From: a virus
Taxonomy: Duplodnaviria > Heunggongvirae > Uroviricota > Caudoviricetes
DNA length: 64,000 nucleotides
Reading direction: 5' to 3' (one strand)
Virus record (IMG/VR): IMGVR_UViG_2859810971_000007
Part shown: positions 32,278 through 32,964 of the stretch, one piece after another
Numbering within the stretch: the first letter of the stretch is position 1
Layout: each line of letters opens with the position of its first letter
Position numbers and translations under genes: made by a program
Notes under the pieces: generated by a model
What the model saw: the letters and a program-made list of their open reading frames with translations, nothing else
Told to the model about the DNA's origin: nothing
The model's database searches: none

Positions 32278-32964
32278 TCACTCCTTCTCTTCTTTACCGT
32301 AGTGGAGTTGACCAATTTTGATAAGAGGGCGTCCCTGAGATTTGCGGTGTAGATTGGTATCGCGCAGAGAATACACACAGCCACAATATTCCTGCTGATA
32401 GAATTTTTCGCGCTTGCTGATTTCAATCATACGGGACGAGCCGCCCTGCTTGCGCCAGTTATAATCCCAGTACACCATGCCCGGATAATGCGCGACGGCT
32501 CGCCGCCCACAGTCGTTAACCTGCTGCATATTTTTCCAGCGTGAAATGCCCAGTGAACTGCTGATCACACTGAAACCATTTTCAGCGGCGTACAGCGCTG
32601 TCCGCTCAAAACGCATGTCAAAACACATGGTGCAACGGATCCCTCGTTCGGGCTCCCATTCCATTCCTTTGGCTCGTTCAAACCAGTTGTCTGTGTCGTA
32701 ATCAGCATCAATAAACGGCACGCCGTGTTGTTCAGCAAAGCGAATATTCTCATCCTTACGAATTAAATACTCTTTCTGAGGATGAATGTTCGGGTTGTAG
32801 AAAAAGATGGTGTAGTCGATTCCCGAGGCCTGAAGCGCCTCCATCACCTCACCGGAACATGGAGCACAGCAAGAGTGCAGTAGTAGTTTGTTTGCCCCGT
32901 TTGGGAGCTCCAATTTGGGCCGTTTGAAATCAGCAACTGTCATAAATATGTTTATTGAGGTCAT
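32278..32964 (-). CDS. QueH-like protein (DUF208, putative epoxyqueuosine reductase)
   Basis: Motifs [48 protein letters not shown] match my recollection of DUF208/QueH. Confidence 0.6.

Follow-up and report, generated by a model that had tools for sequence, protein, structure and literature searches.

The queH gene and its product

The window analysed here, a 64,000-nucleotide stretch of the tailed-phage record IMGVR_UViG_2859810971_000007, carries in a lambdoid prophage the gene queH, predicted to encode an epoxyqueuosine reductase that belongs to the QueH/DUF208 family and works without cobalamin. The program-made list of open reading frames (ORF) of the window places an ORF of 228 codons at 32278..32964, as in the preliminary description of this DNA, which had left its strand unstated; it lies on the minus strand. 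The coding sequence most likely covers 32278..32943 (minus strand) and specifies 221 amino acids (aa) followed by a stop codon at 32278-32280. The seven upstream codons, Met1 to Phe7 (32944..32964, minus strand), are an in-frame extension of the mechanical ORF. These codons differ between seven aligned alleles and include a stop codon in one of them (L014), and from Met8 onward the protein is almost invariant among the seven. Since, moreover, RefSeq starts queH at Met8 and the chromosomal homologues are 214-222 aa in length, Met8 (32943) is most likely the true start, and the first seven ORF codons are probably an untranslated leader. No Shine-Dalgarno sequence precedes Met8 in this allele, and the close chromosomal homologues lack one as well.

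In many public gene calls, and also in the PHROG profile phrog_3217, QueH begins instead at Met41 within the ORF (window 32842-32844). The Shine-Dalgarno-like GGTGAGGTG directly precedes this codon and probably misleads gene finders. The Met41-start models are annotation artefacts that lack the CCAPC cysteine motif.

The QueH/DUF208 identity proposed beforehand was borne out by the search with profile hidden Markov models. The match to Pfam PF02677 (QueH, formerly DUF208) is very strong and full-length, with 220.6 bits against a gathering cutoff of 23.5 bits, E = 1.9e-65 and coverage of profile positions 1-174 of 175. The four QueH motifs quoted in the preliminary description are all found in the translation, at residues 27-37, 54-62 (FFYNPNIHP), 104-115 and 189-200 of the ORF. 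The protein is 100% identical to RefSeq WP_012421537.1, named 'epoxyqueuosine reductase QueH'; PF02677 is present in each of the 120 top database relatives, and whenever one of them has a functional name, it is QueH. Its PHROGs family, phrog_3217, is labelled 'unknown function'. The only solved relatives detected by sequence in the PDB are the Thermotoga maritima QueH structures (E = 5e-22). The AlphaFold2 model of the window protein has a mean predicted local distance difference test (pLDDT) of 95.3 and a predicted template modelling (pTM) score of 0.91, and in Foldseek it superimposes on PDB 7LC5 with a template modelling (TM) score of 0.92 (target-normalised) and a root-mean-square deviation of 1.2-1.3 Å over 179 columns. 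After QueH, the next PDB matches have E values of about 1e-4 and are unrelated PP-loop enzymes, TtuA and GMP synthase among them.

Residue conservation was assessed in an alignment of the window protein with 37 diverse family members (35-86% identity), which contains 18 invariant columns. The cysteines C25, C26, C29, C104, C107, C187 and C189 (C32, C33, C36, C111, C114, C194 and C196 in ORF numbering) are invariant in it and all present in the window protein. The preliminary description had named the lack of a DUF208 match and the loss of the cysteine ligands as grounds for giving up the assignment, and neither was found. When T. maritima QueH is added, six cysteines remain invariant and the position of C29 corresponds to Asp13 of the T. 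maritima protein; this position is a cysteine in at least 90% of the aligned family members. Across the 38-39 QueH sequences (33-86% identity), all invariant columns are kept in the window protein, namely the six cysteines together with N, E, R, E, R, K, Q, G and S. The conserved cysteines are reported, in the paper on 7LC5, to be metal ligands or catalytic. The PDB also holds C9S and D13N mutants of T. maritima QueH (D13 is mutated in 9DCO) as well as a queuosine complex, and these structures mark the corresponding positions as mechanistically important.

Distribution, selection and origin

By megablast, queH is present in 995 of 5426 complete Escherichia coli genomes (about 18%), and every E. 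coli match listed is annotated 'epoxyqueuosine reductase QueH'. The carriers include E. coli B, O157:H7 (Z1832), 042, APEC O1 and CE10. At least 1000 contigs encode the exact 221-aa protein, which is listed under Shigella sonnei and 'MULTISPECIES Enterobacteriaceae' and is common in S. sonnei records. The gene queG was found in all 5426 complete E. coli genomes, and because of this queH is an extra enzyme that adds to QueG in E. coli and does not replace it. The preliminary statement that enterobacteria normally use QueG is thus accurate for E. coli but does not extend to the order, in which many genera have a chromosomal queH. Among viral sequences, 189 contigs in IMG/VR contain close relatives.

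In E. coli B, a Qin-like prophage (L012) carries an intact queH beside hokD and rem. The Qin prophage of K-12 has relBE beside hokD and is not known to carry queH. Laboratory strains derived from K-12 and from B may therefore differ in the queuosine (Q) or epoxyqueuosine (oQ) status of their transfer RNA (tRNA) in media free of vitamin B12.

The prophage alleles are under strong purifying selection. The pairwise ratio of nonsynonymous to synonymous divergence (dN/dS) between them is 0.025-0.076, at dS values of up to 0.45. At least 80% of the gene is covered in 985 of the 995 E. coli copies, and the gene is intact in 80 of the 80 best IMG/VR loci, from which all IMG/VR context counts given below are also drawn. 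The prophage in the window is itself a remnant, of which only 28613-37474 and 38806-39072 match the complete prophage of FDAARGOS_944. The holin is truncated at residue 30 (position 28613), ydaV (33966-34709) has an in-frame nonsense codon, an IS3-family element occupies 37475-38805 and a further transposase gene lies at 39116-39934. Despite this decayed state, QueH is intact and identical to the RefSeq protein throughout.

Homologues are found widely across Proteobacteria, at 75-92% identity. Chromosomal queH genes at 79-92% identity were found in Enterobacter, Kluyvera, Scandinavium, Erwinia, Pantoea, Serratia, Providencia, Photorhabdus and others. In Providencia, Photorhabdus, Erwinia, Enterobacter, Scandinavium and Kluyvera the gene stands amid ordinary chromosomal genes, at a location that differs by genus, and among 80 species representatives a prophage context was seen only in E. 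albertii. In a neighbour-joining tree the prophage alleles form one clade, sister to Scandinavium plus Kluyvera, inside a group that contains Enterobacter. The dN of the prophage alleles to Erwinia is 0.09-0.10, below the 0.13-0.15 to Providencia and Photorhabdus. The simplest reading of these sequence relationships would be a single capture from a chromosome of the Enterobacteriaceae, after which the gene spread through the lambdoid prophages of Escherichia and Shigella; transfer in the reverse direction, from prophage to chromosome, is possible. A search for an ancestral chromosomal locus was unsuccessful, the purL/glrK, tmcA/purC and benE neighbours being each confined to their own genus in the loci searched.

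The QueH subfamily itself is unusually conserved. The E. coli prophage copies are 75-80% identical to proteins of Sphingomonas, Stenotrophomonas, Lysobacter, Pseudomonas, Paracoccus and Neisseriaceae (L017-L096), and the queH locations are non-syntenic in the several Enterobacterales genera examined. High conservation combined with non-synteny suggests either extreme constraint or frequent transfer of the single gene.

Prophage setting and upstream region

The prophage-borne position of queH at the junction of the replication and nin regions was confirmed, as was the lambdoid early-right setting described earlier: cro-like, YdaT, ydaU/ydaV-like and DUF977 genes on one side and DUF1367, DUF1364 and DUF1133/Q-like genes on the other. 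The survey of other lambdoid prophages that had been proposed gave the same slot after the replication module in every context examined. In seven contexts, of which six are annotated records and one is the E. albertii locus L017, queH is on the early-right strand, straight after the replication module (ydaU/ydaV-like, DUF1627, DUF977). The host prophages are lambdoids of the Rac/Qin type with racR-ydaS-ydaT or dicA-dicC immunity. Downstream of queH is a variable slot that contains hokD, an NgoMIV-type restriction-modification system or DUF1971, and beyond it DUF1367/DUF1364/DUF1133 or DUF968/RusA/Q follow. The gene is thus placed between conserved phage modules and variably present (18% of E. 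coli genomes), as expected of a lambdoid 'moron'.

The usual upstream neighbour is the DUF977 gene, the last of the replication module (33526..33948, minus strand; Pfam PF06163), which precedes queH on the same strand in 71 of 75 IMG/VR contigs and in all annotated contexts examined. Between both genes the ORF list of the window gives a small hypothetical gene (33112..33525, minus strand) with a weak Zn_Ribbon_TF match below the Pfam cutoff. This zinc-ribbon-like gene is mosaic filler, called specific to this allele, and is present in 13 of 80 viral contigs.

On the downstream side, the adjacency to hok noted earlier was recovered. A hok/sok type I toxin-antitoxin RNA (32045..32220, minus strand; Rfam RF01794, 117 bits against a gathering cutoff of 59) begins 58 nucleotides downstream of the queH stop codon. 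The mok/hokD reading frame of the ORF list (31895..32107, minus strand; hokD part 31898-32050) has 100% identity to the HokD that RefSeq annotates in L001, a complete and near-identical prophage. A promoter-like site at 32256->32227 falls at the hok/sok region. The mok/hok genes are downstream of queH in 65 of 78 IMG/VR loci. An NgoMIV-family restriction enzyme and a cytosine methyltransferase replace hok/sok in O157:H7 Z1832 (L013 2806-4816) and in 13 of 80 IMG/VR loci, so that the slot downstream of queH behaves like a small defence or addiction hot-spot.

The four tRNAs said to lie about 2.6 kb from queH are at 29380..29689 on the minus strand and read Gly-UCC, Thr-UGU, Arg-UCU and CAU (ARAGORN, Rfam and the RefSeq annotation of L001). 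None of them has a GUN anticodon and therefore they are not QueH substrates; a functional tie between queH and the array was ruled out. The CAU tRNA (29613-29689, minus strand) is called Met by ARAGORN and tRNA-Ile in RefSeq for a near-identical locus; presumably it is a lysidine-modified tRNA of the ileX type.

The upstream region contains a candidate promoter. The extended -10-like element TGCTACACT (TGn plus TACACT; 32978..32986, minus strand) is located 35-43 nucleotides upstream of the Met8 ATG. It occurs only once in the window and is invariant among the aligned prophage alleles; alleles with differing upstream genes have a common block that ends in TGCTACACT. In IMG/VR, each of 80 prophage contigs has the motif at -43. 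The core GCTAC[AC][AC]T, whose background rate is 0.004 per 120 nucleotides, is also placed at -39 to -49 of the chromosomal queH of Scandinavium, Kluyvera, Enterobacter (four genomes), Symbiopectobacterium and an Erwinia sp., and the remaining flanks of these chromosomal genes are unrelated. This conservation suggests that TGCTACACT may be the native queH promoter (TGn plus TACACT/TACAAT), brought along into the phage, and makes an expression of queH in the lysogen plausible.

Two further points concern this region. A riboswitch or other structured RNA upstream of queH was not detected, since the Rfam scan of 31700-33700, at gathering cutoffs and at E <= 1, returned hok/sok alone. Close to the conserved queH leader block, on its upstream side, 33026-33041 forms a perfect GC-rich hairpin (CCGCCC-TTTC-GGGCGG). 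Among the aligned alleles, this one and L001 alone have the hairpin; no U-run follows it on the minus strand, and it was not called as a terminator.

The window as a whole is rich in genes for IS3-family transposases. Five ORFs have exactly 272 aa (5085-5903, 26084-26902, 39116-39934, 50561-51379 and 59312-60130); of these, one was tested and proved to encode such a transposase, with rve and HTH_21 domains. An ALIL frameshift pseudoknot is found at 27460-27576. This load of insertion sequences fits a Shigella-type genome. The isrK Hfq-binding RNA and a C4 antisense RNA adjoin at 57829-58017 on the plus strand, a pair that suggests a part of a second prophage or of a P4/P1-like immunity region.

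Proposed role and comparison with known systems

We consider it likely that queH is a functional accessory gene, that its product is a catalytically competent iron-sulfur QueH that makes the conversion of oQ to Q independent of cobalamin, and that it represents prophage cargo captured with its own promoter-like element. The enzyme would reduce oQ to Q at position 34 of the host tRNA-Asp, tRNA-Asn, tRNA-His and tRNA-Tyr. The gene would be a moron-type component of the Rac/Qin-type lambdoid prophages of Escherichia and Shigella, acquired in a single capture, along with the short extended -10-like element, from the chromosome of a different species of Enterobacteriaceae. In the lysogen, the transcription would probably proceed from that element and would be complemented by read-through of the early-right operon after induction. 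If queH has its own promoter, a transcription start is expected near 32971 in the uninduced lysogen and should be lost when TGCTACACT is changed to CCCTACACG. The likely benefit would be that the last step of Q synthesis is freed from the external supply of B12, because the host has a cobalamin-dependent QueG and E. coli is unable to synthesise cobalamin de novo. Frey et al. reportedly observed in 1988 that E. coli accumulates oQ without B12. QueG is one of the few cobamide-dependent enzymes of E. coli (PMC11841063), and QueH is described as its cobalamin-independent alternative (PMC5615194, PMC9508795).

Several results weigh against this interpretation. The deletion of queG had no growth effect in one reported condition (PMC11841063), which leaves the fitness value of the oQ-to-Q step uncertain. 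The scan for consensus two-hexamer sigma-70 sites gave no promoter upstream of queH, and the terminator scan gave none downstream of it. The G+C content of the gene does not stand out from its neighbours, with values of 0.46-0.50 across the gene and its flanks, so that base composition lends no support to a foreign origin. The tree from which the capture is deduced is a neighbour-joining tree without support values. In a search of 50,697 phage records, Escherichia phage HannyBb was the sole cultured phage with a close copy, labelled 'hypothetical', and the remaining 24 tblastn matches among these records are unannotated metagenomic fragments or doubtful records; a single cultured carrier fits a benefit to the lysogen without proving it. 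Finally, no NCBIfam model matches the queH product at E <= 0.01. The RefSeq name QueH must therefore stem from another type of rule, and the missing match has no bearing on the homology.

An alternative is that QueH serves the lytic growth, being expressed as a delayed-early gene from pR and maturing the Q-tRNA pool for the NAU/NAC codons of the late genes. The location of queH on the early-right strand, directly downstream of the replication genes in every context examined, would suit this role, as would the lack of a terminator-like site between queH and the upstream genes and the presence of the gene in HannyBb, a cultured and presumably viable phage. On the other hand, a cycle of tens of minutes gives scant opportunity to remodel a stable tRNA pool that already has oQ or Q, and the idea presumes that oQ and Q decode differently. 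Furthermore, queH is intact in a remnant prophage that is incapable of lytic growth, and its promoter-like upstream element is conserved with the chromosomal homologues. A lytic role is thus regarded as unlikely.

There is a slim chance that queH is kept as a conflict or niche factor. A wobble base held as Q instead of oQ, regardless of the cobalamin supply, would then alter how readily anticodon nucleases (colicin E5-type enzymes or phage-defence tRNases) attack the four Q-tRNAs, or retune the NAU/NAC decoding in a B12-starved gut. If this were true, the lysogens, among them Shigella sonnei and numerous pathogenic E. coli, would gain a measurable advantage in colonisation or virulence. As to the connection with the translation of Shigella virulence genes raised in the preliminary description, the link is said to come from tgt mutants, which lose the whole modification, and not from the oQ-to-Q step; a virulence link of the prophage queH is speculative.

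The gene might also be a neutral hitch-hiker that has no current function and is merely undecayed, as the remnant state of the window prophage, the presence of QueG in the host and the lack of any known phenotype for losing the oQ-to-Q step would allow. A dN/dS of 0.03-0.08 at dS values of up to 0.45 makes this quite improbable, as do the 80 of 80 and 985 of 995 copies that are intact or near full length and the conservation of all catalytic-site columns.

A dedicated role in defence or counter-defence, for example through an oQ/Q state that sets the resistance or sensitivity of tRNAs to anticodon nucleases, is very improbable. The downstream neighbours would be in keeping with it, be they hok/sok or the NgoMIV-type restriction-modification system of O157:H7 Z1832 and 13 of 80 viral contigs, and a 2026 preprint ties queuosine to phage resistance in Shewanella. 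However, PADLOC gave no match for QueH or its two small neighbours, which ruled out membership of a known defence system, and no partner gene co-varies with queH. Moreover, the protein is 79-92% identical to chromosomal copies in ordinary non-phage surroundings and has no phage-specific domain or extension.

An action of QueH in the 7-deazaguanine modification of phage DNA instead of tRNA is scarcely credible: phages do reuse enzymes of the queuosine pathway in this way, according to PMC6884629 and PMC10516641, but the modification needs a DpdA/TGT-type transglycosylase and genes for preQ0 synthesis. Neither a DpdA/TGT-like transglycosylase nor QueC/D/E is annotated among the 40 features of L001 or in four other annotated contexts, and on this basis the role was ruled out. 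We know of no DNA modification with an epoxy-cyclopentanediol.

If queH acts as a cobalamin-independent accessory reductase, as we propose, about one in five E. coli genomes can complete the final step of queuosine synthesis by a second route, which is independent of the cofactor and encoded on a lambdoid prophage. No clear phenotype is known for this step, which in E. coli is thought to depend on scavenged B12, and the strong purifying selection on queH argues that its completion matters in nature. The prophage gene offers a simple handle on the old question of whether and when the epoxide reduction matters.

The family, its reaction and its structure were already known, and this protein already has the name QueH in RefSeq; the annotation of the gene is thus not new. 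Full-text literature searches, which did not cover the founding QueH paper (Zallot et al. 2017), returned nothing on a prophage or E. coli queH. What seems to have gone unremarked is the arrangement, that is, a lambdoid cargo gene atop a universal queG, with a single origin and a shared promoter-like element.

Compared with T. maritima QueH (PDB 7LC5, 7LC7, 9DEU), the window protein has the same full-length domain, the six invariant cysteines in the order CC...CxxC...CxC and a matching fold. It differs by an identity of 30-33%, by a cysteine (CCAPC) where T. maritima has Asp13, by a basic tail of about 20 aa past the domain that is common to the close proteobacterial homologues, and by being encoded in a prophage. 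The chromosomal genes of Enterobacteriaceae, Erwinia, Providencia and Photorhabdus are 79-92% identical over the full length and of equal length, and the closest ones (Scandinavium, Kluyvera, Enterobacter, Symbiopectobacterium and Erwinia sp.) have the GCTACAMT motif at the same upstream distance. Their surroundings are different, with purL-glrK in Erwinia, tmcA/purC in Providencia, benE in Photorhabdus and a site near icd in one Enterobacter, whereas the copies of E. coli, Shigella and E. albertii are in lambdoid prophages.

QueG (E. coli yjeS), which depends on cobalamin and Fe-S clusters, carries out the same reaction on the same tRNAs (PMC9508795). Its fold and cofactor are unrelated to those of QueH and it needs a cobamide; queG is a core gene (5426 of 5426 E. 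coli genomes) and queH an accessory one (995 of 5426). Like the lambdoid morons, queH is non-essential cargo that is variably present in a fixed slot between modules, possibly with its own promoter; unlike them, it has a typical G+C content and no terminator was found after it. In contrast to the phage systems with QueC/D/E and DpdA, queH is a lone gene for a last-step tRNA enzyme, without a transglycosylase partner.
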